Position numbers and translations under genes: made by a program
Notes under the pieces: model-generated
The model's database searches: none
What the model was told of the DNA's origin: nothing
What the model saw: the letters and a program-made list of their open reading frames with translations, nothing else
Shown here: one piece after another, positions 14,599 through 64,000 of the stretch
Position numbering within the stretch: the first letter of the stretch is position 1
Layout: each line of letters begins with the position of its first letter
Assembly (NCBI GenBank): GCA_041687115.1
Contig: JAWLCP010000003.1
Span: 7,315 to 71,314, forward strand
Reading direction: 5' to 3'
Origin: Anaerolineae bacterium
GTDB lineage: Bacteria; Chloroflexota; Anaerolineae; B4-G1
Length of the DNA stretch: 64,000 nt

Positions 14599-14640
14599 CG
14601 CTCAGCGAGTGCGAGGGTATACTGAATGGAGGAGGGATAG

Positions 14641-16881: not shown

Positions 16882-16906
16882 GGCAGGACGCAGGTTGGAG
16901 AGATCT

Positions 16907-19692: not shown

Positions 19693-19877
19693 CGCCTTGG
19701 GTGCGACGTTGAGGGAACGCGTCCTTCGCCGGGAGTCTCAGGTTGGCGAGACCGTCCGGTCGGCTGGCCTGTCCTGCGCTTCGAATAACGAGTAGGAAGA
19801 AGGTCCCATGTAACCTTAAAGTTTGTCCCAGAGACCTCAAAGTTGACGTGAGATGCTGGCAAAAGCCCCGCGCATAG

Positions 19878-19885
19878 TGTATAAT
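19878..19885 (+). promoter_or_regulatory. Candidate extended -10 promoter element upstream of mraZ (dcw cluster promoter).
   Basis: TGTATAAT at ~19878-19885, about 90 nt before mraZ. TTGACG at 19843-19848 is 31 nt upstream, which is too far for a canonical -35. Confidence 0.3.
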
Positions 19886-19976
19886 TGTGGGGACTTGTGG
19901 GGGAGAGTGGGGCGTTATGGAACGTCTTCCCCGGGATCCGGTTCATTGACGCTCTCACGTGGGGGATAACAACGGT

Positions 19977-20405
19977 ATGTTTCTGGGAGAGTTCGTCCAC
20001 GTCCTCGATAGTAAGGGACGCTTGACCATTCCCGCCAAGTTCCGTGCCGAACTGGACACGGGCCTTGTGGTCACTCGCGGAATCGACCGGTGCCTCGCTG
20101 TCTTCCCCAAGCCTGAATGGCAACAATTGGCCGAGCAGGTCAGCGAACTGCCGCTGACGAACCGACAGGCTCGCGCGTTCCAGCGGCTCCTCTTCGCCAA
20201 CGCCTCCGAGGTCGCCCCTGACAATCAGGGGCGCGTTCTCATTCCGCCCCGTCTGCGTGAGTACGCCGCCCTTGATGGCGAGGTTGTCGTGGCCGGTCTC
20301 AACACGCATATCGAGCTGTGGAATCCGGAGGCCTGGAATCGGGAGCGTGAGCAGTTGGAGGGGGAGGAAGTCGACATCGAGGGTTGGGCGGCCCTGGGTA
20401 TCTGA
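19977..20405 (+). CDS. mraZ: Transcriptional regulator MraZ.
   Basis: MFLGEF...DSKGRLTIPAKFR and second GRVLIPPRLR duplicated MraZ motifs. Confidence 0.92.
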   Translation: MFLGEFVHVLDSKGRLTIPAKFRAELDTGLVVTRGIDRCLAVFPKPEWQQLAEQVSELPLTNRQARAFQRLLFANASEVAPDNQGRVLIPPRLREYAALDGEVVVAGLNTHIELWNPEAWNREREQLEGEEVDIEGWAALGI

Positions 20406-46704: not shown

Positions 46705-46730
46705 GGTGTGTCCTTCAGTGGGATCCAGTG

Positions 46731-48641
46731 TCACAACGCCAGCATCCGTTTCAGAGCCACTCTGGCCCATCTCGCCGTCTCCTCGTCGACGGTGACTTCG
46801 TTGTGCAGCTTGCCGTGCGTCAGACCGTCCAGGACCGCGGCCAGATTCTCCAGGGTGATCCGGGTCATGGTGGCGCAGTAGGGCGGAACGTCGGCCAGCG
46901 GGACGACGGTCTGGTCGGGATGCTCGCTCTGCAGGCGCTGGACCAGGCGGGTCTCGGTCCCGACGGCCCAGATCGTGCCGGGCGGTCCCGCGGCGACCTG
47001 GCGGATGATGTGGGCCGTGGACCCCGCGTCGTCGGCCAGGGACACAACGTCGGCGGTGCATTCGGGATGCACGATGACGCGGGCCTGGGGGTGATGCGCC
47101 CGAAAGGTCCGAACATGCGAGGGTCGGAAGCGCTGGTGCACGTTGCAGGCGCCGGGCCAGAGGACGACCCGGGTCTCACGAAGGACCTCGTCGGTGAGGG
47201 GCCGCCCCTGATCCCAGACGGTCATCTCGGCCGGGGGAATGTCCAGCTGCGCTGCGGTGTTCCGGCCCAGGTGCTGATCGGGGAAGAAGAAGACGCGCGG
47301 TCGACGCTCGAGTGCCCAGCGGAGCACGTCTGGGGCGTTGCCGGAGGTGCACATGATGCCGCCGTACTTTCCGCAGAAAGCTTTGAGGGCAGCCGATGAG
47401 TTGACGTACGTGATGGGCGTGAACTCGCTCTCCGCATCGTCGGAGGCTGTGTCGAGCGCCTTCCAGGCGGCCTGCACGGCGCCAAGCGTCGCCGTGTCCG
47501 CCAGGTAGCAGCCGGCGCTGGGGTCGGGGATGAGCACGTGCTGCCCAGGCTGCGCCAGGATGGCGGCGACCTCTGCCATGAAGTGGACCCCGCAGAAGAC
47601 GATGTACTCGGCGTCGATGTCCGTGGCCTGCCGTGCAAGCTGCAGGGAGTCGCCACGATAATCCGCGAATTCGATGACCTCGTCTCGCTGGTAGTGATGG
47701 CCTAGAATGACGAGCCGTTGATTCAATGCTGCCTTGGCGTCCCGGATGCGCTCAACTGGGTCCGGAACGCCTGTTTCCTCCGATGGGGCTCTGACGTCCA
47801 TGCTCACGTCCAACGCACGCACCGAGTGCGTCAGTGCACCCACAGAGATGTAGTCGACACCAGCGGCCGCTATGTCCGCGACGGTATCCAGGCTGACGTT
47901 CCCGGAGGCCTCCAGAGGCACACGCCCGCCGGCCACCTCAACCGCCTTCCGCATCGTCGCCAGGCTCATGTTGTCCAGCATGATGCGATCCAAAGGCGGC
48001 GTGATGCTCAGGGCCTCGCGGAGCTCGTCTAGCGTGCGAACCTCCACTTCAATGGGGAGGTCGGGCTGAGCAGTGCGGGCCCGGGCCACGGCGGTGGTGA
48101 TGCCGCCGGCCCCCACGATGTGGTTGTCCTTGATCAGGATCATATCGAAGAGGGCCATGCGATGATTGGCGCCGCCGCCCATGCGCACCGCGTACTTGTC
48201 CAGCAGGCGATGACCGGGCACGGTCTTCCGCGTGTCCAGGATGGTGGCCTGGGTCGTGGCGACAGCATCAACGTAGGTCCGCGTGGTGGTGGCGATGCCC
48301 GACATACGCTGCAGGAAGTTGAGCGCCAGACGTTCCGCGGCGAGCAAGGAGGGCGCAGGTCCCTGGACCTCCGCGATGATCTCGCCGGCGACTACCTCCT
48401 GACCATCGTGCACGCGGGAGGCGAAACGAATCTTGGGGTTCACGTGATGGAATACGTGCTCTGCCACGCCGAGGCCGGCGATGACCCCCGCCTCCTTGGC
48501 CACGATGCAGCCGGTCAGCGACGTCTCAGGATCCAGCGTTGCCTCACTGGTCACGTCGCCGGGACCGATGTCCTCGGCAACTGCCAGCTCGATCAACGGC
48601 TCGGCAGCCCTCAGCAGCTCGTCGTTAGAAGTCCTGCCCAT
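46731..48641 (-). CDS. nadC-nadA: Apparent fusion protein: N-terminal quinolinate phosphoribosyltransferase (NadC, ~285 aa) joined in frame to quinolinate synthase (NadA, ~340 aa).
   Basis: NadC motifs: LDTRKT, IKDNH, ISVGALTHS. No stop between them. NadA motifs: VILGHHYQ, FCGVHFMAE, PDPSAGC, PGACNVHQ, HPEC. Confidence 0.75.
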   Translation of the reverse strand: MGRTSNDELLRAAEPLIELAVAEDIGPGDVTSEATLDPETSLTGCIVAKEAGVIAGLGVAEHVFHHVNPKIRFASRVHDGQEVVAGEIIAEVQGPAPSLLAAERLALNFLQRMSGIATTTRTYVDAVATTQATILDTRKTVPGHRLLDKYAVRMGGGANHRMALFDMILIKDNHIVGAGGITTAVARARTAQPDLPIEVEVRTLDELREALSITPPLDRIMLDNMSLATMRKAVEVAGGRVPLEASGNVSLDTVADIAAAGVDYISVGALTHSVRALDVSMDVRAPSEETGVPDPVERIRDAKAALNQRLVILGHHYQRDEVIEFADYRGDSLQLARQATDIDAEYIVFCGVHFMAEVAAILAQPGQHVLIPDPSAGCYLADTATLGAVQAAWKALDTASDDAESEFTPITYVNSSAALKAFCGKYGGIMCTSGNAPDVLRWALERRPRVFFFPDQHLGRNTAAQLDIPPAEMTVWDQGRPLTDEVLRETRVVLWPGACNVHQRFRPSHVRTFRAHHPQARVIVHPECTADVVSLADDAGSTAHIIRQVAAGPPGTIWAVGTETRLVQRLQSEHPDQTVVPLADVPPYCATMTRITLENLAAVLDGLTHGKLHNEVTVDEETARWARVALKRMLAL

Positions 48642-51090: not shown

Positions 51091-51328
51091 GTTTTCACCT
51101 CCTTCGCGATTGTGCCCCAGCGGGCACACCTTCCTTTTGCCTCGTCATTGTAGCGTACCGGTGGGTGCGCGACCAGAGGGATTTGGCCCGTCTGTGCCCC
51201 CGCCAAACGGCGGGGGCCGAGACTGGACGACGGACACGTTGGCCAACCTGTGGGCGGTGTGGACGCGGCCGACCTACCCGGAGATGGTGACCGATTCGAT
51301 ATGTGAAAACTATGTTACAGATGCAGAC

Positions 51329-51372
51329 TGCAAGAAAAGAGTCTTGCATTCCGTGCCGGTTTGTGGTATACT
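51329..51372 (+). promoter_or_regulatory. Sigma-70-type promoter TTGCAT-17-TATACT (with TG extension) overlapped by a 7-bp-arm palindrome TGCAAGA-N6-TCTTGCA. Positioned so that the RpiR transcript would be leaderless or near-leaderless.
   Basis: -35 at 51344-49. -10 at 51367-72. ATG at 51378. Palindrome at 51329-51348. Confidence 0.5.
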
Positions 51373-51377
51373 CGAGT

Positions 51378-52241
51378 ATGGCACGTGGAGACGGGATCCT
51401 CGATATGATAACCGCGGCCTTCCCCGATCTCCCTCGCGGGCAGAGGCAGGTTGCCCGTTTCATCGTCGACAATGGAACCTTCGTTGCATTCGCCTCAGCA
51501 ACAGAGTTGGCCGAACAGGCAGGCGTGAGTGCCGCGACCGTGGTGCGTTTCTGTCAGGCGATGGGATACGACGGCTATCCTCACCTTCGAGCAGCAGTTC
51601 GGGAGAGGTTCCGACGGTCTTTGACCACGGCCCAGCGCCTGGAGGAGCGGCTGCGCGCCCCGATTCCCAGGGACGATCTGCTGGCTCAGGTCTTCAGGAG
51701 AGGCATCCAGAACATCAAGTTCCTGATGGAGCAGATCGATCCGAGAGCCTTCGAGGCCGCGATCGATGAATTCGGTCGCGCGAACCACATCCTCGTGGTC
51801 GGCGGGGGACTTTCGGCATCCCCCGCTATGTTCCTCTCCCACTCCCTAAAGGTGATGGGATTCTCGGTCCAGGCGGTGACTACGGGGGGCATACCGCTGT
51901 CGCTGGAGCAGAGTGCCCTGGGACCAGACGATCTCTTGGTTGCCTTCGGATTCTGGAGGTACTTTCGGCATATTGTGGCGACCATGGAATGGGCTCAGAA
52001 GAGGGGAATCCCGAGAATTGCGGTCACCGACAGTGAGGTCTCTCCATTGGCCCAGTTGGCGGACCACGCCTTCATCGCGACCACCGATGGCGTCGGCCAC
52101 AGTGTGTCCCCACTCGCGTCCACCGCGTTGGTCGAAGCCTTCATTGCGGCACTCTCGTTCGGCAGACCTAAGGAGACACTTGCAGCCCTGCGTGACGTAG
52201 ACGCAGCCTACAGGGAGAGCGGCTTGCTACTGGAGGACTAG
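51378..52241 (+). CDS. RpiR/MurR-family transcriptional regulator (HTH + SIS domain).
   Basis: HTH_6: ELAEQAGVSAATVVRFCQAMGYDGY. SIS domain: ILVVGGGLSASPAMFLSHSL. Confidence 0.85.
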   Translation: MARGDGILDMITAAFPDLPRGQRQVARFIVDNGTFVAFASATELAEQAGVSAATVVRFCQAMGYDGYPHLRAAVRERFRRSLTTAQRLEERLRAPIPRDDLLAQVFRRGIQNIKFLMEQIDPRAFEAAIDEFGRANHILVVGGGLSASPAMFLSHSLKVMGFSVQAVTTGGIPLSLEQSALGPDDLLVAFGFWRYFRHIVATMEWAQKRGIPRIAVTDSEVSPLAQLADHAFIATTDGVGHSVSPLASTALVEAFIAALSFGRPKETLAALRDVDAAYRESGLLLED

Positions 52242-52692
52242 TCTCGGCGATTTGAAGACAGGTGAGTCAGGAAGTTCGGCAGGGCGGCAGCCCTGCGCCT
52301 TGTCAATCAGATCCGCATGGCACGACCCAGATCCATACTCTATGACAGGTGCGCCGGGGACCACCAGGTTCCGGTTCTAGGCTGCGAGAGCCGTGCTCTT
52401 CGGGCGGGTCGCAACTAGGCATCTGATGAGCTGGGTGGACAAGGCAGCGAAGGACCCACGCCCGCCGCGGTGTCGTGGATGGTGTGTTGAGTGCAGTGGA
52501 CCGCGACGCGGGCATCAGACCATCAGGAGGTGAACAGCGCCAGAACATATGACAGCTCGTGGGAAACAGGTGTGTCCGTCGACGAGATCGACATCCAACA
52601 AAGGAGGTGACTGCGGACACAGATGAGGGCGTAGCGGAATCGACGCACTGGTTTTGAGTCACGTCTTGAAGCTCGAAAAAGGAGGACGTATC

Positions 52693-54402
52693 GTGTTCAA
52701 TGCGAAGAGAACCATTCTAGTAGTCACATCCCTCCTTCTGCTGATAGCGTCGCTGGTCGGCTGTGCCGCTCCTACCGTTGAAGAGGTGGAGCGAGTCGTC
52801 GAGAGCACGGTAGAAGTGGAGAAGACAGTGGAAGTGGAGAAGACCGTGGAGGTGGTGGTGACACCTACCTCTCCTCCCGCCCGCGACACGCTCACTGTAG
52901 CAATGGCGGCCGCGCCTACTTCCCTGGATCCAGCGGATCATCGCAGCCGCGAATCCGAGACGGTGATTCGCAACATGTTCGATGGACTCGTTACTCGGGA
53001 CACCCGCAGCGGCGTTCACATGGAGCTGGCTGAATCGATGGAGTGGGTGGATGAGGAGACGCTGGAGGTCAAGCTGCGTGAGGGCGTCTTGTTCCACGAT
53101 GGCCAGGAGATGACCGCCGATGATGTCGTCTTCACCTTCGAGCGAATCATCAACGAGAATCAGATCGAGTATCCCGAGCCCCATACCTCTCCCCGCAAGG
53201 GTCTTATCGCCCCTCTGGAATCGATCGAGAAGACGGATGACTATGCGGTCGTGATGCACTTCAGTGGCGCCTGGCCGCCAGCGATGCAGATGCTCGTCCA
53301 CCAGCAGATCGTGCCGAAGCATTACCTGGAGGAGGTTGGTACCGAGGGGTTCATCGAACATCCCATCGGCACGGGCCCCTTCAAGTTCGTATCCGCCGAA
53401 GGCTTGGAAGAGATCGTCATGGAACGCTTCGATGATTACTACGGTGGGGCCCCGGGCCTGGAGCCAGTGGGACCAGCCTGTGTGAAGACGGCTGTCTTCC
53501 GCGTCATCCCCGAGGCATCGTCGCGAGTGGCGAGTCTGCTGGCCCGTGAGGTGGATATCATCCAATCTACACCCCCGGAGATGATCGACACCTTGGCCCA
53601 GACACCGGGCATTCAGGTCAAGACAGCGCCAAGCACTCAGCCCAAGTGGATGGAGATGAACGTCAGCATGCCACCCTTCGACGACATGCGCGTGCGCCAG
53701 GCGATGAACCTCGCGGTCGACAAGGAGCTGATCATTGATGCGCTCTACGGCGGAAGGGCTGTTGCCCTTCCTGGACCTCTGTCACCGTACAACAACTTCG
53801 TCAACGAGGATCTGGAACCCTACCCTTACGATCCTGAGATGGCGCTGGACCTGTTGGAGGAAGCTGGCTGGACGGACTCCGATGGTGATGGCACCCTGGA
53901 CAAGGACGGTCAGCCCTTCGCCTTCACGATTGACACAATTGAAGATTGGCGATCGTTGGCGGAGGCGGTGGCCGACCAGTTCCGCGCGATCGGAATCGAT
54001 GCTGGTGTTCGGTTCTGGGAGTATAGCGTCGTAAAGCCCATGCTCCTGGCCGGCGAGCGCACCGCGTACTTGGACGACTGGGGAGACTCGGCGTTCGATC
54101 CCGTCGGCCACTTCGAGGCGAAGTGGCACGGGCAGGTGGAAGGGGAGCCGTACGGACGTGGGAACTTCTCGACGTACAACAACGAACGGGTGAACGAGCT
54201 CATCAAGCAAGGCGAGACAACGGCTGATCCGACCCAGCGGCAGGAGATCTACGATGAGGCCCAGGAGATTGTCTACGAGGAGGCGCCTGCGGTGTTCTTG
54301 ATTTTGCCGGAGGAGGCCGAGGCTGCATTGGACGACATTCAGAACTGGGAGCCAGCCTCTGACAGCCGGATCAACCTACACGACGTGTGCATTGGGGAGT
54401 GA
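52693..54402 (+). CDS. ABC transporter substrate-binding lipoprotein, family 5 (Dpp/Opp/Nik-type).
   Basis: GTG start after AAAGGAGG. Lipobox LVGC. SBP_bac_5-type length and motifs. Confidence 0.85.
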   Translation: MFNAKRTILVVTSLLLLIASLVGCAAPTVEEVERVVESTVEVEKTVEVEKTVEVVVTPTSPPARDTLTVAMAAAPTSLDPADHRSRESETVIRNMFDGLVTRDTRSGVHMELAESMEWVDEETLEVKLREGVLFHDGQEMTADDVVFTFERIINENQIEYPEPHTSPRKGLIAPLESIEKTDDYAVVMHFSGAWPPAMQMLVHQQIVPKHYLEEVGTEGFIEHPIGTGPFKFVSAEGLEEIVMERFDDYYGGAPGLEPVGPACVKTAVFRVIPEASSRVASLLAREVDIIQSTPPEMIDTLAQTPGIQVKTAPSTQPKWMEMNVSMPPFDDMRVRQAMNLAVDKELIIDALYGGRAVALPGPLSPYNNFVNEDLEPYPYDPEMALDLLEEAGWTDSDGDGTLDKDGQPFAFTIDTIEDWRSLAEAVADQFRAIGIDAGVRFWEYSVVKPMLLAGERTAYLDDWGDSAFDPVGHFEAKWHGQVEGEPYGRGNFSTYNNERVNELIKQGETTADPTQRQEIYDEAQEIVYEEAPAVFLILPEEAEAALDDIQNWEPASDSRINLHDVCIGE

Positions 54403-54606
54403 CCCCTTTCTGACCGGTCAGCACGTTGGCTGATCTAGACGATCAGGGATCAAGGCGACTTTCTGCCTGATCCCTGATCGAATCCGAGGGAACCAGGCTG
54501 TTGTAGGTGTCGACGTGCGTTTCTGTACGTCTTGAGGGCGTTTTCATAGGCGGGCGGCGTGAGGCCTGATGCGATCGCCGGAATGGGCATCCAGAAAGGG
54601 TATTGT

Positions 54607-55617
54607 ATGCGTGCCATAAAGATTCTAGAACGCGTGCTGATTACCATACCAATTATGTTCGGCGTAGCTGTCATGGTCTTCTTTTTCATGCGGCTGACGC
54701 CCGGCGACCCGGTGGATATCATGATGGGCCAAGGTGGCGCGGTAAGCGCGGGTGAGATCGAGAACTTGAGGCGGGAGTTCCATCTTGACCAGCCGCTTCA
54801 CATCCAGCTGTGGCTGTTCTTCAGAGACGCCGGACGCGGCGATCTCGGGTATTCATACATCCAGAAGCGGCCGGTTAGGGAGCTCATCGCGGAACGGCTC
54901 CCGGCAACCATCGAACTGGCCGGAGGGGCGCTGCTCTTCGCTCTCATCGTTGCCATCCCGGTGGGTATTGTATCGGCCGTCAAGCAGAACTCCTTGGTGG
55001 ACCAATTCAGTATGGCTGGCGCCTTCATCGGCACCTCCATGCCGGCGTTTTGGTTGGGCATCGTCCTGATCCTGCTATTCTCCGTGCGCTTGCGCTGGCT
55101 CCCCGTCCAGGGCCGTGTCAGCTTCGGGGCGGGGCTGGAGAAGGTCACGGGCTTCTACGTCTTGGATAGCATCTTGACCGGGAACACGGCTGCCTTGATC
55201 AGCAGCTTGAGGCACTTGGTCCTCCCCTCGGTGGCGCTGGGGGCGACGGTGGCAGCCATCGTTGCCCGCGTGCTCCGCTCCAGCATGGTGGAGATCCTGC
55301 GGCAGGATTACATCACTCTGGCACGGGCCAAAGGGCAGAGCGAGTTCTTGGTGGTGATGAAGCATGCCCTGCGCAACGCCCTGATTCCGACTGTGACGGT
55401 TGTGGGCCTACAAGTGGGTTCTCTGTTGGGGGGGAACATGATCGTGGAAACGGTCTTCGGGTGGCCTGGCCTAGGACGCATGGTCGTGTTGGCCATCTTC
55501 AACCGGGACTTTCCTCTGATACAAGGTACCGTGATGGTCTATGCCTTCACGTATGTGATGGCTAACCTGGTTGTGGATATTCTTTACACGTACCTGAACC
55601 CCAAGATCACTCTCTGA
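54607..55617 (+). CDS. ABC transporter permease (DppB/OppB/NikB-type).
   Basis: BPD_transp_1 EAA-like loop ITLARAKGQSE. Six TM helices. Confidence 0.85.
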   Translation: MRAIKILERVLITIPIMFGVAVMVFFFMRLTPGDPVDIMMGQGGAVSAGEIENLRREFHLDQPLHIQLWLFFRDAGRGDLGYSYIQKRPVRELIAERLPATIELAGGALLFALIVAIPVGIVSAVKQNSLVDQFSMAGAFIGTSMPAFWLGIVLILLFSVRLRWLPVQGRVSFGAGLEKVTGFYVLDSILTGNTAALISSLRHLVLPSVALGATVAAIVARVLRSSMVEILRQDYITLARAKGQSEFLVVMKHALRNALIPTVTVVGLQVGSLLGGNMIVETVFGWPGLGRMVVLAIFNRDFPLIQGTVMVYAFTYVMANLVVDILYTYLNPKITL

Positions 55618-55650
55618 GCGGATGCTGGTGACGGGCAACTGAGGAGGACT

Positions 55651-56586
55651 ATGGAGCTCACACCCGCTGCTGAGGAACCTATCAAACGCGGAATACACGT
55701 CCTGGAGGTGCGGCTTCGCCTGCTGTGCAGCAATACGGTGTACCTGTGTGGACGCTTCCGCACCCGCCCGCTGGCGATACTCGGAGGCATCGTCGTTCTG
55801 GTGTACTTGCTGGCTGCCGTCTTTGCCCCGCAGCTTACGTCGCACGACCCTACGGAAGGAAACCTCCGGGTGCGTCTCCGGCCGCCGATGTGGACGGAGG
55901 GCGGCGACGCAGCTTATCCGCTGGGTACGGACGACCAGGGGCGGGATTTGCTGACGCGCATCACTTTTGGATCCCGGATCTCGCTGCTGGTTGGTTTGCT
56001 GGCGGTGGGAATCTCGGTGGCGATCGGGACTACGCTGGGAGCGCTGGCCGGCTACTATCGTGGGCTGCTCGACAATGTGCTGTCGCGCTTCGCCGACTTG
56101 CTGCTGGCCTTCCCCTATCTCATCTTCGCGATCGCCGTCATGGCTTTTCTCGGCCCCGGGTTTGTGAACTTACTCATGGCCCTGACATTCAAGGGGTGGG
56201 TGGAGTTCTTCCGCCTGGTGCGAGGAGAGATGATGTCGGAGAAAACGAAGGAGTACGTGCAGGCGGCCAAGGTGATGGGACAGGCTCCGCTGGTCATCGT
56301 CGCAAGCGAGATTATTCCCAATATCGTCCAGTCGGTCTTTGTGCTGGCCACCCTGCGTACAGGGTACATGATCATCATGGAGGCGAGTCTGAGCTTCCTC
56401 GGCCTGGGCATTCAGCCCCCCACGCCGGCATGGGGTTCGATGGTGGCGGCCGGAAGAGATTACTTGCTCACTGCTTGGTGGGCTTCTACACTGCCTGGGA
56501 TCGCCATTTTGATCCTGGTTCTGTCTATCAACATCTTCGGGGAGGGGTTGAGAGATATTCTCGATCCACGACTGAGAATCGAGTGA
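55651..56586 (+). CDS. ABC transporter permease (DppC/OppC/NikC-type).
   Basis: TM core with EAA-loop YVQAAKVMGQAP. Confidence 0.85.
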   Translation: MELTPAAEEPIKRGIHVLEVRLRLLCSNTVYLCGRFRTRPLAILGGIVVLVYLLAAVFAPQLTSHDPTEGNLRVRLRPPMWTEGGDAAYPLGTDDQGRDLLTRITFGSRISLLVGLLAVGISVAIGTTLGALAGYYRGLLDNVLSRFADLLLAFPYLIFAIAVMAFLGPGFVNLLMALTFKGWVEFFRLVRGEMMSEKTKEYVQAAKVMGQAPLVIVASEIIPNIVQSVFVLATLRTGYMIIMEASLSFLGLGIQPPTPAWGSMVAAGRDYLLTAWWASTLPGIAILILVLSINIFGEGLRDILDPRLRIE

Positions 56587-56620
56587 GGCGAGGCCGTTGG
56601 CTGGATTGCGGCCGTAAGGG

Positions 56621-58066
56621 TTGGGAATGACGTTGCTGCGTGTCCTGGGGGAGCGCGAGGTAGGGCGGATTCACGAGCACGCGCTTCACGTTCTGGCTGA
56701 GACGGGGCTCCTGATCCACGACGATGAGGTGGTGACACGGCTGACAGAGGCGGGAGCCCTGGTGCACCACGAGAATGGCAGGCGTCGAGTGACCATACCG
56801 AGCCAGGTGGTAGAGGATGGGCTGGGTGAGGCACCTAAGGTGGTGACGCTCTACAACCGGATGGGAGAAGAGGCTATGGTTCTCGGCTCCGGCCGGCTTC
56901 ACGCTCGCAGCTCGAGCGGTGCCACGGCCATGCTTGACCAAGATGGCGGGCAGCGTCGCAAGGCCACGCGCCAGGACGCGGCGCATGCTGTCCGATTGGC
57001 GGACAGTCTGTCGAACGTGCACGGGGTGAGCACGATGGCGGTGCAGCCGGCGGACGTGCCTGCCAGCACTGTCGACGTGCATACCGTGAGGCTTGCTCTG
57101 GCGAATACAGCGAAGCCGTTGGGCTACGTCTGCCTCAACGAAGGGTTGATCGAAGCCGTGGTGGCGATGGTGGCCGTCGTCGCGGGGGGCGAGAAGCGTC
57201 TGAGGGATCGCCCCATGATCACTGCCCTGGCGGAATCCACGTCTCCGCTGCAACTGGTTTCAAGCCAGCTCAGTGTGCTCAAGGCATTTGCCTCGCGGCG
57301 CCTGCCGCTGACCCTTCACGCTCACCCAATAGCTGGTCTCACAGCACCGGTGACGCTGGCAGGCGAGCTGGTGATCACGCACGCCGAGGTCCTGGGGTTG
57401 ATGACGATTGCCCAATTGATCGGGCCGGGCACTCCGGTCGTGTACGGTATGTCATCGTCGGTGCCGGACATGCGGAACGCGGCGAACCTGTCCGGTGCCG
57501 TGGAGATCGGACTGTTGGGCGTGGCCGTGTCTCAGCTGGCGCGGCACTGTGGGGTGCCCTGCGTCGTGAGCAGTGGGAGCGATGCCCATCAGCCAGGTGC
57601 TCAGAGCGTGATGGAGCGTCTCATGACGCTCTTGCCGCCAGCCCTGGCAGGGGTGGGTTTGATCAACCTCTCGACTCTGGAGACGAAGATGTCTTTCAGC
57701 CTGGAGCAACTGGTGATCGACGATGCCATTGTGGGCATGGTTCAGCGCTTTCTACGGGGGATCGCCGTCGAGGGGGAGACCCTGGCGCTCGATCTGATCA
57801 AGCGGGTAGGGCCAGCTGGTTCTTTCGTGGCGGAGGAGCACACGTTTGAGTACTACCGGGACGAACTGCTGACGTGCGAGCTCATTGAGCACCAACCGAG
57901 AGAGGCATGGCAGGCGGCGGGCGCGCCGGACCTGGAGAGCAGGGCTGGAGAGAAGGTGGAGCGCCTACTGGCAGAGCATCAACCCTCTCCCCTGCCATCG
58001 AGCGTGGTTGCAGAGCTTGATGACATCGTAGACGCGGTCGAGGATGAAGGTGGTTCGCCATGGTGA
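56621..58066 (+). CDS. MttB-superfamily (trimethylamine methyltransferase-like, non-Pyl) corrinoid-dependent methyltransferase, embedded inside the ABC transporter operon.
   Basis: N-terminal L..EREVGRIHEHALHVLAETGL matches the MttB/MtgB family N-terminus. About 480 aa. No in-frame amber. Stop overlaps the next gene (ATGGTGA). Confidence 0.75.
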   Translation: MGMTLLRVLGEREVGRIHEHALHVLAETGLLIHDDEVVTRLTEAGALVHHENGRRRVTIPSQVVEDGLGEAPKVVTLYNRMGEEAMVLGSGRLHARSSSGATAMLDQDGGQRRKATRQDAAHAVRLADSLSNVHGVSTMAVQPADVPASTVDVHTVRLALANTAKPLGYVCLNEGLIEAVVAMVAVVAGGEKRLRDRPMITALAESTSPLQLVSSQLSVLKAFASRRLPLTLHAHPIAGLTAPVTLAGELVITHAEVLGLMTIAQLIGPGTPVVYGMSSSVPDMRNAANLSGAVEIGLLGVAVSQLARHCGVPCVVSSGSDAHQPGAQSVMERLMTLLPPALAGVGLINLSTLETKMSFSLEQLVIDDAIVGMVQRFLRGIAVEGETLALDLIKRVGPAGSFVAEEHTFEYYRDELLTCELIEHQPREAWQAAGAPDLESRAGEKVERLLAEHQPSPLPSSVVAELDDIVDAVEDEGGSPW

Positions 58067-59130
58067 AACATGTTCGCACGAGTCAGACACTTGCCGACGT
58101 GAAAGGGCAGGCAATGGACAGGTCTCCCGCTCCACTGCTGGAATTGGATAACCTGACCACGGTATTCCCCACCCAGCGTGGTCCGGTGCGGGCCGTCGAC
58201 GGCCTGAGCTTTCGCCTGCATGAAGGGGAGAGACTGGGGATTGTCGGGGAGTCCGGATCGGGTAAGACGGTCACGCTACTATCCATCCTTCGCCTGGTAC
58301 CTCACCCGGGGAAGATCGTAGACGGGGAGGTGTGGTACGGCGAGGAGAGTCTCCCTGGGATGTCGACCAGGGAGATACGTCAGCTGCGGGGCAAAGACAT
58401 CGCCATGGTCTTCCAGGATCCGATGACGACGCTGAACCCTGCCTTCCTGGTGGGTGACCAGATTCGTGAGTCGTTGAGGATCCACCACATTGTTCCCCGC
58501 TCGAATGGGGTCTTCTCGTGGTTGTTCGATCGAAAGGCCAAGGAGGCGGAGTGGGAGCGGGTGTTGCGGGCGATGAAGGATGTGGGGATCCCGGTGCCTG
58601 CCCAGACCGCCCACCGCTACCCGCATCAGTTCAGTGGTGGCATGCAGCAGCGCGCCTTGACGGCCATCGCACTGGCGTGTGAACCGCACGTCCTCCTGGC
58701 CGATGAGCCGACGACGGCTCTCGACGTGACGATACAGGCACAGATCCTGGACTTGCTCGCAAGGATCAACAAGACGCATGGCACAGCCATTATCCTCGTG
58801 ACCCACAATCTGAGCGTTGTGGCTGAGTTTTGTCAGACCATCGTCGTGATGTACGCCGGGCAGCTGATGGAGAAAGGGTCGGTTGACCAGATCATCGAAG
58901 ATCCGAGGCACCCGTACACGCGCGGTCTGTTGCGCTGCCTGCCCAGAATCAGCGACCGGCGAGAGAGGATCATGCCGATTCCCGGTCTGGTGCCCGATCT
59001 GGCCAAACTGCCGCCGGGGTGTCCTTTCGCGCCGCGGTGTGACCGCAGTCTGCCCGAATGCTCAGAGGTTGGGAGAGTCCCGCTGAGGGCCCTGGGTGAC
59101 GGTCAATTGGTCCGTTGCCTTCTGTACTAG
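58060..59130 (+). CDS. ABC transporter ATP-binding protein (DppD/OppD/NikD-type).
   Basis: Walker A GESGSGKT. Signature FSGGMQQR. Walker B LLADEPTTALD. Oligopeptide C-terminal domain. Confidence 0.88.
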   Translation: MVKHVRTSQTLADVKGQAMDRSPAPLLELDNLTTVFPTQRGPVRAVDGLSFRLHEGERLGIVGESGSGKTVTLLSILRLVPHPGKIVDGEVWYGEESLPGMSTREIRQLRGKDIAMVFQDPMTTLNPAFLVGDQIRESLRIHHIVPRSNGVFSWLFDRKAKEAEWERVLRAMKDVGIPVPAQTAHRYPHQFSGGMQQRALTAIALACEPHVLLADEPTTALDVTIQAQILDLLARINKTHGTAIILVTHNLSVVAEFCQTIVVMYAGQLMEKGSVDQIIEDPRHPYTRGLLRCLPRISDRRERIMPIPGLVPDLAKLPPGCPFAPRCDRSLPECSEVGRVPLRALGDGQLVRCLLY

Positions 59131-59168
59131 CTCTTAGAGGCGCGAGGTGCTGCTGGAGGAGGCCTGAT

Positions 59169-60218
59169 TTGTCAAGAGAAGCTCTTGTCGAAGCGCGGGG
59201 GGTCAAGAAGTACTTTCCCATACGACACAGCGTGCTGGTCAAGCTGCTGGCCGGGCGGAAGGATCAGTGGGTGAAGGCGGTGGACGGGGTCAACTTGAAG
59301 ATCTATCCCGGCGAGGCCGTCGGGCTGGTGGGAGAATCTGGGTGCGGCAAGACGACGCTGGGGCGCGTGTTGACGCGCCTCTACGATCCCACGGAGGGAG
59401 AAGTGATCTACCGGGACAACTCGCTGGAAGACGATGAGGCCGGTCAGAGAGCCGTTCTCTTCGAGGACAGAGTGGAGACTGAGCGAGAGGTGCCCCCGGA
59501 GGGTTTGAGTTTCTATCGCATGACGCAGATCATCTTCCAGAATCCCTACTCATCGCTGAATCCTCGAAAGACGGTGCGACAGATCCTCTCCGTTCCGCTG
59601 CGGAACCGAGGGATCAGGGGGTTCGCGGCCCGTGAACAGGAGATCTTGAGGCTACTGCAGCGGGTGGGTATACCCAAGCGCCGCATCGATGCCTATCCGC
59701 ATCAATTCAGTGGGGGACAACGCCAGCGGATCGGGATTGCGCGGGCGCTGGCGATGCGGCCCAGGTTCATCGTCTGTGACGAGCCGGTGTCTGCGCTGGA
59801 CGTCTCCATCCAGGCACAGGTGATCAATCTGTTGGACGAGCTCCAGGAAGAGTTCAACCTCACGTATCTCTTCATCGCCCACGACCTTAGCGTGGTGCAC
59901 TACGTCAGCGATCGGGTGGCGATCATGTACCTGGGAAAGATCGTCGAGGTGGGGCCGACGGATAAGGTATTCAGGCACCCGGTGCATCCATATACTCAGG
60001 CGCTGATGGCGGCTGTTCCATCGGTGGACAAGGCGCAGCGGCGGGAGCGGATTATTCTGGAGGGGTCCGTCCCCAGTCCCGTCGATCCCCCTACGGGGTG
60101 CCGCTTTCACACCCGGTGCTTTGCCAAGGGACGGAGCAAGTTGTGCGAAGAGGAGGAACCGTCGTTCGTCACGGTGGACGACGGTCATCACGTGGCATGC
60201 CATCTGTGCCAGTGGTGA
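59169..60218 (+). CDS. ABC transporter ATP-binding protein (DppF/OppF/NikE-type). TTG start; the ORF track gives 59115.
   Basis: Walker A GESGCGKTT. Signature FSGGQRQR. Walker B VCDEPVSALD. C-terminal Cys-rich oligopeptide tail. Confidence 0.88.
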   Translation: MSREALVEARGVKKYFPIRHSVLVKLLAGRKDQWVKAVDGVNLKIYPGEAVGLVGESGCGKTTLGRVLTRLYDPTEGEVIYRDNSLEDDEAGQRAVLFEDRVETEREVPPEGLSFYRMTQIIFQNPYSSLNPRKTVRQILSVPLRNRGIRGFAAREQEILRLLQRVGIPKRRIDAYPHQFSGGQRQRIGIARALAMRPRFIVCDEPVSALDVSIQAQVINLLDELQEEFNLTYLFIAHDLSVVHYVSDRVAIMYLGKIVEVGPTDKVFRHPVHPYTQALMAAVPSVDKAQRRERIILEGSVPSPVDPPTGCRFHTRCFAKGRSKLCEEEEPSFVTVDDGHHVACHLCQW

Positions 60219-60300
60219 CCGGAGTGCCTTGCGCCTGCGAGCCTCGCCGGCGCGTTCGAATGATGCACAACGCATACGTTGACCGTGAAGAAGAGAGGAA

Positions 60301-61440
60301 GTGGTGACGTCACCGGTGGAGCGCAGTCGCACCGCGGGCGGGCCGATCAGACTCACGCTACAGGGCGACCATTACACTATAGGGCGGCAGCACGGCGCGC
60401 AGGTGAAGACGCTGCGTCCGCTTATCGATGAGGCCATCAGGGCCCGCCTGGATGAGATCGAGCGATACGGAAGCGACCCGCGCTTTGAGACGCTGGTCCT
60501 GGAGACGCGGGAAGCGCTGATGACGCACTGCCCGAGGGTGGTAAATCTGATCCGGGGTCAGGCCGATGCGCTGGGGTACGAGTTTGAGCACCTGCTAAGG
60601 TACGACCTGGTATCGTATCTTCGGGATGACCTGCTGACCCGGGAGAGGGCGAGGGCCGAAGGGTGCACGACCTGGGCGGCCACAGGGTCGGCCAGCGCCG
60701 ATGGCCTTCCCATCCTGGCCAAGAATCGGGACTACCGCCTGGAGCATCTTCCTCTACAGACAGTAAGCTGCGTAAAGCCCGTCGCGGGCCATCGGTACGT
60801 GTGTGCGGGCAGCGCTGGAAGCCCCGGAGTCTACTGCGGCGGAATCAACGAGGCTGGCTTGGCCGTCGCCGACACGCACGTGGCCTCCACGAACATGGGG
60901 CCGGGACTGCCGGACTACGCGTTGATGATGCACCTCCTGGAGACCTATGACGTGGTCTCCTCAGCCGTGGACTACCTGCGGTCGGTCCCCCGGTTGGGAA
61001 GGAACCATCTGATTCTGGCGGATGTCCAGGGTGAGGTGGCGGTGTTTGAAAGTGGACACAGTTCGTACGGCCTGTTCAGTACTAGAGACGGCACGCTGGT
61101 CAACACCAATCATCCCGTCAGTCCTCACTTGCGACACCACTTCACGGATTTAAGCCCGCCTGTCGTGAAAGGGAATACATTCCGGCGCTATGACAAGGTG
61201 TCGGACGCCCTGCGTGGGGCGTACGGTCAGATCGATGTCGCTTTCGCGCGAGGATTGATGGCCGCTCACGACGGGCCCCTGGCCTCGGTGTGCCGCCACC
61301 CGATGGACGGATGTGATTCGGCCACCATTGCGGCGTGCATCTTCCTGCCTACGGATCGGACCATGCTCTTCTGTCACGGACTTCCGTGCCAGGGAACCTA
61401 TGAACCCTTCGTGTTGAGAGAAGGCGGTGACAGACGGTGA
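60301..61440 (+). CDS. Peptidase C45 / acyl-CoA:6-aminopenicillanic-acid acyltransferase-family Ntn hydrolase.
   Basis: Autoprocessing/nucleophile context EGCTTWAATG. About 380 aa. Confidence 0.6.
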   Translation: MVTSPVERSRTAGGPIRLTLQGDHYTIGRQHGAQVKTLRPLIDEAIRARLDEIERYGSDPRFETLVLETREALMTHCPRVVNLIRGQADALGYEFEHLLRYDLVSYLRDDLLTRERARAEGCTTWAATGSASADGLPILAKNRDYRLEHLPLQTVSCVKPVAGHRYVCAGSAGSPGVYCGGINEAGLAVADTHVASTNMGPGLPDYALMMHLLETYDVVSSAVDYLRSVPRLGRNHLILADVQGEVAVFESGHSSYGLFSTRDGTLVNTNHPVSPHLRHHFTDLSPPVVKGNTFRRYDKVSDALRGAYGQIDVAFARGLMAAHDGPLASVCRHPMDGCDSATIAACIFLPTDRTMLFCHGLPCQGTYEPFVLREGGDRR

Positions 61441-62621
61441 AGATGGAGAAGATCACCATCTGCGGTGGAGGAAACGGGGCGCAGACCCTGGCCTGTATCG
61501 CAAGCCGGAATTTGACGTGCCACGTAGACGTGTATGCTTCCTTCAGGGACGAGGCCGAGAAGCTTCGCGAGGGGATTGAGGCCCACGGAGGGATTGAAGC
61601 CAGGGGGGCGGTGCGAGGAACAGGTCGTCCCCACACGGTGAGCGGCGACGCCGCAGAGGTGATACCAGGCTCGCATGTCGTCGTGCTGGTCGTGCCGGCC
61701 TTTGCCCACGAGAGCACGTTGCGCGCGATCGTCCCTTACCTGGATAACGGAGCCTGGGTGGGCGCCATGCCCGCTCGCGGCGGGCTTGACTACTGCATGG
61801 CGAGGGTCCTGGACGACGCTGGGCGATCCGACGTCACGATCTTCGGACTGCAGACGCTGCCATGGGCCTGTCGGATCGCTGAGTATGGTCGCGTCGTTCA
61901 GGTCCTGGGGGTGAAGGAGACCGTCGATGCGGCGAGCCGCCCTGCCGCCCGTCTGGGCCGCATCGCGTCGGTGCTGGAGCAGATGCTGGGCGTTCCCATC
62001 GGGGACGGGGGAAGTATGCTGGCCCTCACCCTGGCCAATACGGGACAGATCATCCACCCAGGCATCATGTATGATCTCTTCGCCGATTGGGATGGGGAGA
62101 CCTTCGATGATGGCCAGGTCCCGTTGTTCTATCAGGGCCTGAGTGAGGAAGGAGCGGAGAGGCTGGGTGAGCTGAGCCAGGAGATTCAATGCGTCTGTGC
62201 GTGCCTCGCGAGTTATTCCTTGGATCTGTCCAGCGTGCACGATTTGAGGACCTGGCTGGTTCGATCCTACGGGGACGCGATCCTTGACGCCTCCAGCCTG
62301 CACAGCGCCTTTGTGACGAACCGAGCCTACGCCGGACTGAGGGCCCCGGTCAAGGAGGTGGCCCCCGGGCGGTTCGCGCCCGCGTTTGGCGCGCGCTACC
62401 TGGCGGAGGACGTACCGTACGGCCTGGCCGTAAGCCAGGCCATTGCCCGATTGGCCGGCGTGGAGACCCCCACGATGGACCAGGTCGTCAACTGGGCCAG
62501 GCAGAGGCTGGGGGGTGAAGCCGGAGGAGATGAGACCAACGATCGAACGCCACAAGCATACGACTTGAACGATCTGGAAGCGCTGATTCGTTTCACCATG
62601 GAGCATAGGGAGAGGGTGTGA
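61437..62621 (+). CDS. NAD(P)-dependent opine dehydrogenase family protein (octopine/nopaline-DH-like).
   Basis: N-terminal Rossmann ITICGGGNGAQTLA. C-terminal Octopine_DH-like helical domain. About 390 aa. Confidence 0.65.
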   Translation: MKMEKITICGGGNGAQTLACIASRNLTCHVDVYASFRDEAEKLREGIEAHGGIEARGAVRGTGRPHTVSGDAAEVIPGSHVVVLVVPAFAHESTLRAIVPYLDNGAWVGAMPARGGLDYCMARVLDDAGRSDVTIFGLQTLPWACRIAEYGRVVQVLGVKETVDAASRPAARLGRIASVLEQMLGVPIGDGGSMLALTLANTGQIIHPGIMYDLFADWDGETFDDGQVPLFYQGLSEEGAERLGELSQEIQCVCACLASYSLDLSSVHDLRTWLVRSYGDAILDASSLHSAFVTNRAYAGLRAPVKEVAPGRFAPAFGARYLAEDVPYGLAVSQAIARLAGVETPTMDQVVNWARQRLGGEAGGDETNDRTPQAYDLNDLEALIRFTMEHRERV

Positions 62622-62694
62622 TGGAGCACATCCTCGTACCATTGGAGCGCACCTCATAAGAGGGCGTTCAAAGCACTGTACAGGAGGCGGTACC

Positions 62695-64000
62695 GTGAGT
62701 ACTGAGACAGAAACACTTGACAGAAGACGGCGCGTGCTGGCTGGCTCCATCGGAGACTGTGTCCACTCTCTGGGCGTGGAGACGTTCGCCGAGTGGATGG
62801 AGGACCGAGGCGAGGGATATATGGCCGTGAAGCTAGGTCCGGCCGTGGCGATTGATGACGTGATCAACAAGATACGCGAATCGCGGCCGGAGGTGGTGGC
62901 CATCTCGATGCGCCTGGGGGATCTGCACGTCGATAAGCTCATCGGCGAGTTCATCACCAAGGCTGCTCGATATGACCTCTTGCCCGAAGAGAGCGGCATT
63001 CGGTACGCGTTTGGAGGACTGCGGCCGGCGGCGAATCTGGTGCGCGCCATGACGGGCCTTCCAGTGCTGGAGGACAAGTTCTCGCCGCCGGAAGATCGCC
63101 ACTTTGATCTGGAGGAAGTGGCTGAGAACTACAGCGACATCGCAGCATTCCAGAACTTCTTTGCCCTGGTGGTCGATGACTACGTGGGCATGGAGGAGCT
63201 GGAAGCCTTCGCCGAAGGCGAGTTCGTGGTGGTGAAATCGGATGAGATCGAGTGGGCCGATTCCCTCCTGGCGCGCGTCAAACAGGTGCGAGAGCTGGAG
63301 AACCGGCCCATCATTCGGGCCCACATTGGCGTCGCTGCCGACAGCATAGAGCCAACGATCGACGCCGTCGAGAAGATGGCCGATGCCGAGTGTCTGGAGA
63401 TTGTGTCGCTGGCCCCGGATCAGCCTTCTCAGGAGTATCTGGCCAAGTTCGTGCGGGGCGAGGAAGACCCGGACAAGTATCTCAAGGGACAGGGTGGTGT
63501 CCCGATCCGAACCAAGGAAGATCTGGCCCGGCTCAAGGAGGCGACGCAGAGGGGCAACTACCCAATGACGCGGATCTACTCCGGGACCGATGAGCTGGTC
63601 GAACTGGCGAAGCTCTTCGAAGGGGAGTTCAACATGCCATTCCCGGCGGTGCCCATCTTCTTCTACAACGAGTTGGATGGGCGCGGCCCCATATCGATCC
63701 GGGATAGCTTCGACGAGCACTTCGAGGTCATGCGCTGGTGGGCGGAGCAGGGCAAGGCTCTGGAGGTTAACGATCCGCATCAGTGGCAGCTCCGCAACAG
63801 CACCGACGACATGCTGGTGACCGATCACGTCATCGCTGGTGTGGCGGCACTCAGGGCAGGCATCCAGGACTACGTCATGCAGATGATGTACGACCTGCCG
63901 CCAGGTGCCTCAGGCCTCAACGACTTGGCCAAGTTCCAGGCAGCGTACGAGTTGATCGAGCCCTTGACACGCCATTTCAGCTTCCACATCATCAAGGAGA
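62695..64000 (+). CDS. Cobalamin (B12)-binding-domain protein, 3' partial: runs off the window end and is absent from the ORF track.
   Basis: AGGAGG-7nt-GTG start. DxHxxG...SxL...GG B12-binding signature (GDCVHSLG, then ~41 residues, SMRL, then FGG). Strong third-position GC codon bias in this frame. No stop through position 64000. Confidence 0.55.
   Translation, partial: MSTETETLDRRRRVLAGSIGDCVHSLGVETFAEWMEDRGEGYMAVKLGPAVAIDDVINKIRESRPEVVAISMRLGDLHVDKLIGEFITKAARYDLLPEESGIRYAFGGLRPAANLVRAMTGLPVLEDKFSPPEDRHFDLEEVAENYSDIAAFQNFFALVVDDYVGMEELEAFAEGEFVVVKSDEIEWADSLLARVKQVRELENRPIIRAHIGVAADSIEPTIDAVEKMADAECLEIVSLAPDQPSQEYLAKFVRGEEDPDKYLKGQGGVPIRTKEDLARLKEATQRGNYPMTRIYSGTDELVELAKLFEGEFNMPFPAVPIFFYNELDGRGPISIRDSFDEHFEVMRWWAEQGKALEVNDPHQWQLRNSTDDMLVTDHVIAGVAALRAGIQDYVMQMMYDLPPGASGLNDLAKFQAAYELIEPLTRHFSFHIIKE

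Follow-up and report, generated by a model that had tools for sequence, protein, structure and literature searches.

Glutamate mutase, known from Clostridium and from Escherichia coli O157:H7, consists of three components encoded by three genes in the order S-L-E (GlmS/GlmE/GlmL, also named MutS/MutE/MutL), and in E. coli O157 the genes for methylaspartate ammonia-lyase and mesaconase adjoin glmSLE. In the ornithine 4,5- and lysine 5,6-aminomutase pathways, a mutase that uses both B12 and pyridoxal 5'-phosphate (PLP) is followed by an NAD(P) dehydrogenase, and genes for MutL-like reactivases are present. Opine-type dehydrogenases are represented by the octopine dehydrogenase of Pecten maximus (PDB 3c7a) and by CENDH of Arthrobacter (1bg6), the Cnt staphylopine-type systems combine an opine dehydrogenase with a family-5 ATP-binding cassette (ABC) importer, and the MtgB, MtpB, MtcB and MtyB systems are built on members of the MttB superfamily without a pyrrolysine codon. 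Here, we describe a locus in which genes related to several of these systems stand side by side. It lies at the 3' end, from position 51303 onwards, of a 64,000-nucleotide stretch of DNA from an Anaerolineae bacterium (assembly GCA_041687115.1, contig JAWLCP010000003.1, positions 7,315 to 71,314 of the forward strand); this whole stretch is referred to as the window.

With a probability of roughly 55%, we interpret the locus as a widespread, undescribed uptake and breakdown operon, the core of which is formed by an opine dehydrogenase homolog (ODH) and a single-chain coenzyme-B12 enzyme of about 1,224 amino acids, here called the big protein, and to which an exchangeable importer, regulator and amide hydrolase as well as an optional MttB homolog would be added. 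An earlier note on this DNA, made from the sequence alone, had supposed that the combination of genes is not a described pathway, and nothing in the literature searched matched it, as no description of the big protein, of its pairing with ODH or of this context of MttB was found.

The opine dehydrogenase and its partner

The window proteins were mapped onto 80 loci, taken from one genome per species, and open reading frame (ORF) clustering covered 83 loci. The big protein is present in 78 of these 83 loci and ODH in 73. The ODH gene adjoins the big gene in 65 of the 69 loci with enough flanking sequence, lying directly upstream in 59 and directly downstream in 6 of them, with a median gap of about 110 nt. 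A natural fusion of the two, arranged as ODH, linker and big protein, is provided by P0084 (1,657 amino acids, found on three contigs). ODH and the big protein are the fixed, invariant core of the module. Dozens of genomes, which belong to several phyla, share this set of genes, and the arrangement is not due to chance.

The ODH matches the P. maximus octopine dehydrogenase over its full length (3c7a, 2.6e-66). It retains the GGGNGA nucleotide-binding loop and the equivalents of His212, Arg324 and Asp329, which we take to be the catalytic residues of octopine dehydrogenase. Most likely, the enzyme functions as an opine-type dehydrogenase. Besides the ODH that adjoins the big gene, some clusters contain another, divergent paralog with about 25% identity to the window ODH (L008, 5666-6739; L010, 5503-6624; also L009 and L013).

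The window cuts the big protein at residue 435. On a public contig that is 99.9% identical to the window (CAZAFF010000030.1, locus L001), the gene occupies positions 11259-14639 and continues for at least 1,092 codons before it runs into a gap of N at about 14535-14636. The public gene calls on this contig omit the big gene and list three antisense ORFs instead (11397-12344, 12681-13442 and 13479-14534). Intact homologs have about 1,224 amino acids and form at least 443 clusters with 60-94% identity over the whole length. They originate from Anaerolineae, Caldilineae, Bacillota, Armatimonadota, Ignavibacteriales, Acidobacteriota, Atribacteria, Spirochaetales and other taxa. A scan of the GTDB species representatives confirmed 158 candidate stretches as relatives of the big protein and places it in at least 158 representative genomes, and an exhaustive search of 1.84 billion representative proteins returned only 282 relatives, while a searched plasmid collection contained no homologs. 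Members of the family are currently annotated as "glutamate mutase L" or overlooked.

Architecture of the big protein

From its N-terminus, the big protein is built of a GlmS-like B12-binding domain and a GlmE-like TIM barrel, which a Cys-containing linker connects to a GlmL/MutL ATPase domain. Pfam recognises only two of these features, namely the N-terminal B12-binding domain, whose weak match of 26-27 bits (27.3 bits for the window gene) lies under the gathering score of 32.1, and the C-terminal MutL/GlmL domain (PF13941, 235.6 bits, residues 705-1035). The C-terminal half also aligns with GlmL of E. coli O157 (hhalign 99.9%, E 1.7e-31, 32% identity), and the ATPase motifs DFGST and DIGGATTD are invariant in the family. 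Where a His-on B12 domain has the motif DxHxxG...SxL...GG, the big protein reads C22-V-H24-S-L-G27, S71-x-R-L74 and G107-G108, of which His24 and Gly27 are invariant, and a weak hhalign alignment of the N-terminus with GlmS (E 0.007) sets Cys22 on the Asp of DxHxxG. Profile searches against the PDB matched the B12 domain alone. An AlphaFold model was made for the homolog P0014, in which a Rossmann domain from residue 12 is followed by a (beta/alpha)8 barrel, a small beta-hairpin linker and an actin-fold domain; the barrel residues 190-600 mostly have a predicted local distance difference test score (pLDDT) of 80-95. At the top of the Foldseek matches to the PDB stand only adenosylcobalamin mutases (ornithine aminomutase, glutamate mutase E, lysine aminomutase and methylmalonyl-CoA mutase), and the barrel in the model has the fold of GlmE.

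We read the big protein as a single-chain, GlmS-GlmE-GlmL-like B12 carbon-skeleton mutase that represents a new family, whose putative link to GlmE is made by predicted fold and transitive homology only. The latter is provided by stand-alone relatives of about 540-630 amino acids among the 282 relatives, which comprise the B12 domain and the barrel. Eight of 40 stand-alone relatives match PF06368, the GlmE family model (P0251 passes the gathering score of 26.6 with 27.5 bits, the homolog in locus L088 falls just short with 25.2 bits), and as a profile the stand-alone set aligns to GlmE with an hhalign E-value of 2.8e-5. Because they match PF06368 and align to GlmE, these relatives form a sequence bridge from the big protein to GlmE. 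Distant stand-alone clades carry the canonical DxHxxG; the clade nearest to the window protein has CxHxxG.

The earlier note had described the last gene of the window as a B12-domain protein and had paired MttB with a corrinoid protein in its hypothesis. The gene product is, however, not as such a B12-domain protein but a much longer, mutase-like one, whose barrel and ATPase domain speak against the function of a methyl carrier for MttB. Corrinoid carriers of the methyltransferase systems have about 210-260 amino acids and a helical cap at the N-terminus. A small, MtgC-like methyl carrier is excluded by the length, by the domains and by the missing N-terminal cap domain of about 90 residues, as residues 9-82 align to residues 94-166 of MttC. 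With the corrinoid-protein models, the big protein reaches 15.4 bits for TIGR02370 (pyl_corrinoid, cut-off 215) and 16.1 bits for NF047996 (MtgC, cut-off 370). A PLP-dependent aminomutase was considered as well. In both aminomutases, ornithine 4,5- and lysine 5,6-, the PLP-binding Lys is located 11 residues past the cobalt-ligating His; this position is Met35 in the big protein, and the reading was set aside.

In the linker at residues ~580-650 (numbering of P0001), beyond the end of the window, three cysteines are invariant, namely C588 as well as C623 and C632 of the motif GKCRTKIVxGxC. They are located on a predicted beta-hairpin, and a metal or Fe-S site could be formed by them.

Such a centre would also suit a different enzyme, namely a self-contained methylcobalamin methyltransferase, in which the B12 domain and a TIM-barrel methyltransferase would be joined to an ATP-dependent reductive activator similar to RamA or RACo, and for which ODH would be a partner in the conversion of an N-methyl or O-methyl compound. 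RamA and RACo are likewise actin-fold ATPases. By sequence, the B12 domain finds its best solved matches among the corrinoid proteins of methyltransferases, namely MttC (7xcn_M, E 1.5e-4 for the family profile) and 4jgi. Methionine-synthase folate/cobalamin domains appear among the Foldseek matches (9cbo, 5e-6), and an MttB has been recruited to some clusters. However, the ATPase is specifically a GlmL by both the PF13941 and the hhalign match, and to our knowledge the GlmL family is known only beside adenosylcobalamin-dependent mutases. As the cap domain is missing too and the relatives match the Met_asp_mut_E model, a methyltransferase of this kind appears unlikely, and the mutase reading is preferred.

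The locus and its exchangeable neighbours

The genes of the module in the window are listed below with their coordinates and strand. Searches with hidden Markov models found all gene families proposed earlier, from the RpiR regulator to the B12 gene, in the same order and on the plus strand, including the matches to SBP_bac_5, PF03417 and PF02317.

51303-52241, +, RpiR/MurR-family regulator (Pfam HTH_6 50 bits, SIS 53 bits)
52242-52692, +, intergenic region of 451 nt between the RpiR and transporter genes, presumed promoter/operator
52693-54402, +, family-5 (Dpp/Opp/Nik-type) substrate-binding lipoprotein (SBP_bac_5 278 bits)
54559-55617, +, ABC permease, DppB/OppB-like (BPD_transp_1 143.5 bits; BPD_transp_1_N)
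55651-56586, +, ABC permease, DppC/OppC-like (BPD_transp_1 94.7 bits; OppC_N)
56621-58066, +, non-pyrrolysine MttB-superfamily protein (PF06253 304.6 bits)
58060-59130, +, ABC ATPase, DppD/OppD-like (ABC_tran, oligo_HPY)
59115-60218, +, ABC ATPase, DppF/OppF-like (ABC_tran, oligo_HPY)
60301-61440, +, proenzyme of a C45-family N-terminal nucleophile amidohydrolase/acyltransferase (NF040521 178 bits, cut-off 85; PF03417)
61437-62621, +, ODH (PF02317 Octopine_DH 116.6 bits)
62695-64000, +, first 435 codons of the big protein (GTG start; cut by the window end)

For the binding protein, the ORF extends from 52654, but translation probably starts at the GTG at 52693, in front of which stands the ribosome-binding site AAGGAGG and behind which an LVGC lipobox is encoded. 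At 58060-58066 the sequence reads ATGGTGA, in which the stop of MttB overlaps the start of the following ATPase gene, just as the earlier note had it. The 451-nt spacer gave no match in Rfam to a cobalamin or other riboswitch, and a scan of it for promoters and terminators gave no signal above chance. Among the genes 5' of 51303 are starch/glycogen GH57 genes, the dcw/FtsA/FtsZ cluster and genes for Mfd, for an aldehyde:ferredoxin oxidoreductase, for a two-component system and for NadB and a NadC-NadA fusion. Since these are unrelated housekeeping genes, the module begins at the RpiR regulator. The G+C content of the module (window 52001-64000) is 0.60-0.64 compared with 0.635-0.677 in positions 1-52000, and its G+C content at third codon positions is 0.71-0.78 compared with mostly 0.77-0.89 across the remaining window. 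Together with the high identity of the big protein across phyla, this composition suggests a horizontal spread of the module.

Two observations concern the region upstream. The NadC and NadA domains share one ORF of 636 amino acids with a NadB-like gene alongside (46731-48641 and 45070-47061, both on the minus strand), and about 330 nt are shared between the NadC-NadA ORF and the longest ORF found for the NadB-like gene. The gene for the aldehyde:ferredoxin oxidoreductase (AFOR_N and AFOR_C) is located at 16823-18751, which is consistent with an anaerobic lifestyle of the host.

Three components around the invariant pair, namely importer, regulator and amide-bond enzyme, are exchanged from locus to locus; the Dpp/Opp-type ABC importer of the window, for instance, gives way to a TRAP system elsewhere. 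Among the 83 loci, the family-5 binding protein is found in 59, the permeases in 53, the ABC ATPases in 47 and RpiR in 43, mostly beside ODH, followed by C45 (38 loci), GntR/UTRA regulators (14), C26 peptidases (12), MttB (12), Amidohydro_3 (5), GGT (4), Ala_racemase_N (4) and TRAP DctM (4). Of the 80 mapped loci, 38 have a complete ABC transporter within 10 kb, and of these 27 have C45 and 7 have MttB. In Chloroflexota, the module keeps RpiR as its regulator, and its place is taken by GntR/UTRA in the Bacillota clusters. In the slot of C45, other loci carry a C26 peptidase, GGT, a D-aminoacylase-like amidohydrolase (Amidohydro_3) or a D-glutamate cyclase-like gene. The last of these is found in a Spirochaetales metagenome-assembled genome (MAG; locus L079), where it lies at 7700-8794 (PF14336, 239 bits) directly 5' of ODH and the big gene, preceded by GntR/FCD and MttB genes and with an M20 peptidase and a DUF3100 gene downstream. 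In one Bacillota locus, genes for an SDF dicarboxylate/amino-acid transporter and GntR accompany ODH and the big gene, together with a C26 peptidase gene and TRAP genes; in L166, such an SDF gene adjoins the cluster. In the otherwise typical cluster of L017, a gene for a zinc-type alcohol dehydrogenase (19305-20300) is inserted between both ABC ATPase genes. Where C45 is present, its self-cleavage site Gly121-Cys122 is kept in at least 95% of 38 orthologs. The binding protein resembles the solved structures of AppA, DppA and AccA at 1e-38 to 1e-48; this is a generic similarity, and the comparison gave no clue to the substrate. It scores below every NCBIfam equivalog cut-off, far under that of NikA and with 93 bits against 800 for the CntA model.

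The MttB homolog belongs to the non-pyrrolysine MttB family, as proposed in the earlier note. Its PF06253 match, for which the cut-off is 25 bits, covers residues 6-477, and it remains below the cut-off of the pyrrolysine-type model TIGR02369 (389.8 bits, cut-off 525). Among solved structures, MtgB (9yce, 6.8e-60) is the closest, followed by the pyrrolysine-containing MttB (7xcl, 3.8e-57), whose pyrrolysine position corresponds to Gly319, with no pyrrolysine codon. A protein identical to the window MttB carries the NCBI label "Anaerolineae bacterium". In MtgB, glycine betaine is bound by Y97, R312, H348 and F356, of which F356 makes a cation-pi contact (PMC13080624). None of the four residues is kept in the window MttB, which has S99, V315, a gap and K356 at the aligned positions. 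Across 111 members of the subfamily, S99, G319, N349 and K356 are invariant, and position 315 is occupied by V, L, I or A. A Lys in place of the cation-pi Phe argues for a substrate of a different kind. Every subfamily member with a visible context sits in this type of cluster, but its position within the cluster varies: it is found at the junction of the permease and ATPase genes in the window, L082 and L083, after the ATPases in L038 and after C45 in L029 and L167. The placement between permease and ATPase genes, to which the earlier note had attached meaning, is thus a local one. Nor is MttB the centre of the module as had been assumed, being carried by only 7 of the 38 complete clusters; the invariant pair is formed by ODH and the big protein, which the earlier note could not have recognised. 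MttB is a dedicated but dispensable accessory of about one cluster in five. The binding proteins of clusters without MttB are 73-83% identical to that of the window, the same as in clusters with MttB, so both kinds of cluster probably import one and the same compound. Most likely, MttB demethylates a methylated form or fragment of this substrate together with a corrinoid partner encoded outside the cluster.

The search for such a partner bears on a pathway for the demethylation of quaternary amines, in which C45 and ODH would first trim the substrate and MttB would then pass the methyl group to the B12-domain protein as its cognate corrinoid carrier. A scan of the 64-kb window for the motif DxHxxG...SxL...GG yielded no credible second corrinoid protein, and Pfam found only housekeeping functions in 20 other window genes. 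This absence of any other corrinoid protein from the window and the clusters would favour the pathway, as do the secure family membership of MttB, the occurrence of its subfamily in this cluster type only where a context is visible, and the similarity of the B12 domain to methyltransferase corrinoid proteins. The same motif scan and Pfam searches of the window, as well as the conserved neighbours in the 83 loci, however, also lack a cap-containing corrinoid protein, a methylcorrinoid:tetrahydrofolate methyltransferase and a RamA-type activase. Moreover, 31 of the 38 complete clusters have no MttB and yet the big protein is kept in all of them, and neither the size of this protein nor its missing cap, its scores with the corrinoid models, its GlmE-like barrel or its GlmL domain are those of a methyl carrier. 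We therefore regard the demethylation pathway as improbable.

A different genomic context is found for the stand-alone relatives. A metagenome scan with the clade nearest to the window protein (about 550 amino acids) returned 80 loci (L086-L165), with 522 stretches confirmed in total. An ODH homolog adjoins the B12-barrel gene in 72 of these 80 loci, and a separate MutL gene lies alongside in 4. Locus L156 is an unfused counterpart of the window cluster with permease, ATPases, RpiR, C45, MutL, ODH and the barrel protein. Within the stand-alone clade, P0264 is a fusion with ODH and P0251 carries a fused ATP-grasp domain of the GshB/RimK type; 10 loci have asparagine-synthase-like genes as neighbours, and 9 have D-Ala-D-Ala-ligase-like ATP-grasp genes. 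The combination of a mutase, an ATP-grasp enzyme and a dehydrogenase is also the logic of PylB/PylC/PylD. These neighbours suggest biosynthesis for the stand-alone pair, whereas the importer and hydrolase suggest catabolism for the fused pair, and both would fit reversible enzymes that act on one class of compounds.

The ligase-type neighbours also lend some weight to a system that produces and recaptures a compound such as an opine metallophore or an osmolyte, made by ODH and the mutase and re-imported by the ABC transporter, all the more as the Cnt system relies on a family-5 binding protein for the uptake of its opine metallophore. The neighbours of the fused family are, however, hydrolases, importers and regulators of a catabolic type, and no ligase, exporter or nicotianamine-synthase-like gene is among them. 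The doubt that the earlier note had voiced about a Cnt-like metallophore system is shared here in view of the missing CntL-like gene and the low CntA score, and a biosynthetic role of the fused module is considered highly unlikely.

Proposed pathway and relation to known systems

For the uptake and breakdown operon, we propose the following sequence of steps. The importer would take up a small anionic compound that is linked through an amide or lactam bond and has a glutamate-like N-carboxyalkyl, that is, opine-like, moiety, and the amide would be opened by C45 or one of its substitutes. The NAD(P)-dependent ODH would then oxidise or cleave the secondary amine, and before or after this step the B12 enzyme would rearrange the C5-dicarboxylate skeleton by a radical 1,2-shift, with the GlmL domain exchanging or repairing the cofactor at the expense of ATP and thereby serving as the enzyme's own chaperone or reactivase. 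Where MttB is present, it may take the methyl group off a methylated variant of the substrate or off a fragment of it. The catabolic direction is deduced from the importer with its binding protein, from the hydrolases and from the regulators, and a glutamate-like substrate from the GlmE-like barrel, the hydrolases of the gamma-glutamyl and D-glutamate type and the SDF transporter in L166. This barrel and these hydrolases, together with the D configuration that opines have in the half derived from the keto acid, hint at a (D-)glutamate-type moiety, which we consider a lead to the substrate.

Several points weigh against this interpretation. The evidence is computational throughout and entirely in silico for all members, and the homologs of the big protein all come from MAGs. 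The B12 motif reads CxHxxG where DxHxxG is expected, and we know of no characterised B12 mutase in which Cys replaces this Asp. PF06368 does not match the window family, and the hhalign comparison of the family alignment with GlmE was empty. The model of P0014 has a mean pLDDT of 67.6 with a poor ATPase part. Methylaspartate ammonia-lyase and mesaconase are encoded in none of about 160 loci, and the amide hydrolases that were found belong to broad families whose names fix no substrate. Finally, as no corrinoid partner of MttB was found in the window and the clusters, the B12 domain may still be its methyl acceptor.

Some of these points also bear on the assumption that the big protein is an orthodox, if fused and divergent, glutamate mutase that converts L-glutamate from imported gamma-glutamyl peptides to 3-methylaspartate, with ODH merely balancing the redox state. 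GlmE is the top structural match, the GlmS, GlmE and GlmL components are all there, and gamma-glutamyl hydrolases (C26, GGT) fill the hydrolase slot in some loci. An orthodox enzyme would be at odds with the missing PF06368 match, with an identity of the barrel to GlmE of 12-14% and with the lack of the two downstream enzymes that adjoin glmSLE in E. coli O157. In addition, the near-obligate adjacency of ODH and its fusions argue that ODH shares the substrate, and Arg149 and Glu171 of GlmE do not meet identical residues in the sole available alignment, which is itself too weak for a reliable placement of Glu171 and the substrate-binding arginine claw. An orthodox glutamate mutase is therefore given little chance, and the rearrangement of an opine-like substrate by a new mutase is preferred.

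Beyond the operon itself, we tentatively propose, at somewhat less than even odds, that the pair of ODH and B12-barrel protein constitutes an unrecognised family of coenzyme-B12 radical enzymes that rearrange an N-carboxyalkyl (opine-type) or D-glutamate-derived compound, whereby the fused forms would catabolise and the stand-alone forms synthesise a widespread metabolite exchanged in anaerobic communities, and the MttB subfamily would act on a substrate that is not betaine-like. The reaction types of B12-dependent isomerases are few and new ones are rare; against this background stands a family that is well conserved across phyla including Spirochaetota, with a new architecture and an opine dehydrogenase as an unprecedented obligate partner. 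It also poses an annotation problem, given the label or omission under which its members are currently found. The operon marks a substrate that would be imported and degraded by filamentous Anaerolineae and other uncultured fermenters of sludge, sediment and the subsurface, and it thus bears on the diet of these abundant organisms. The MttB subfamily, with its invariant active site different from that of MtgB and without a local corrinoid partner, is a target for extending the substrate range of the superfamily.

Compared with glutamate mutase, the GlmL component is common to both, but the three components are here joined in one chain in the order S-E-L, with CxHxxG instead of DxHxxG, an additional Cys linker and a barrel that is too divergent to reach PF06368, and the place of the adjacent methylaspartate ammonia-lyase is taken by ODH as obligate partner. 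Like the proteins of the MtgB, MtpB, MtcB and MtyB systems, the window MttB is a full-length PF06253 member without a pyrrolysine codon. It differs from them in lacking the four betaine residues of MtgB and an adjacent corrinoid protein, methylcorrinoid:tetrahydrofolate methyltransferase and RamA, and in being embedded in an operon of transporter, ODH and mutase genes for which it is dispensable. The window ODH shares full-length homology, the nucleotide-binding loop and the catalytic equivalents with the octopine dehydrogenase of P. maximus and with CENDH; in contrast to these, it is a bacterial enzyme in an operon with a B12 enzyme, to which it is sometimes fused, and it is probably used in the direction of cleavage. 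From the aminomutase pathways, the module is distinguished by Met35 instead of the PLP-binding Lys and by the lack of an OraS/KamE-like partner and of thiolytic cleavage enzymes, and from the Cnt systems by the lack of CntL and CntK, by the low score with the CntA model and by hydrolases and a B12 enzyme in their stead. The module is partly like glutamate mutase with its GlmL, partly like opine catabolism and partly like the lysine and ornithine pathways, in which an aminomutase is followed by a dehydrogenase, but it belongs to none of them. We regard as new the proposed B12-mutase family and its architecture, the partnership of an opine dehydrogenase with a B12 enzyme, and the MttB subfamily.

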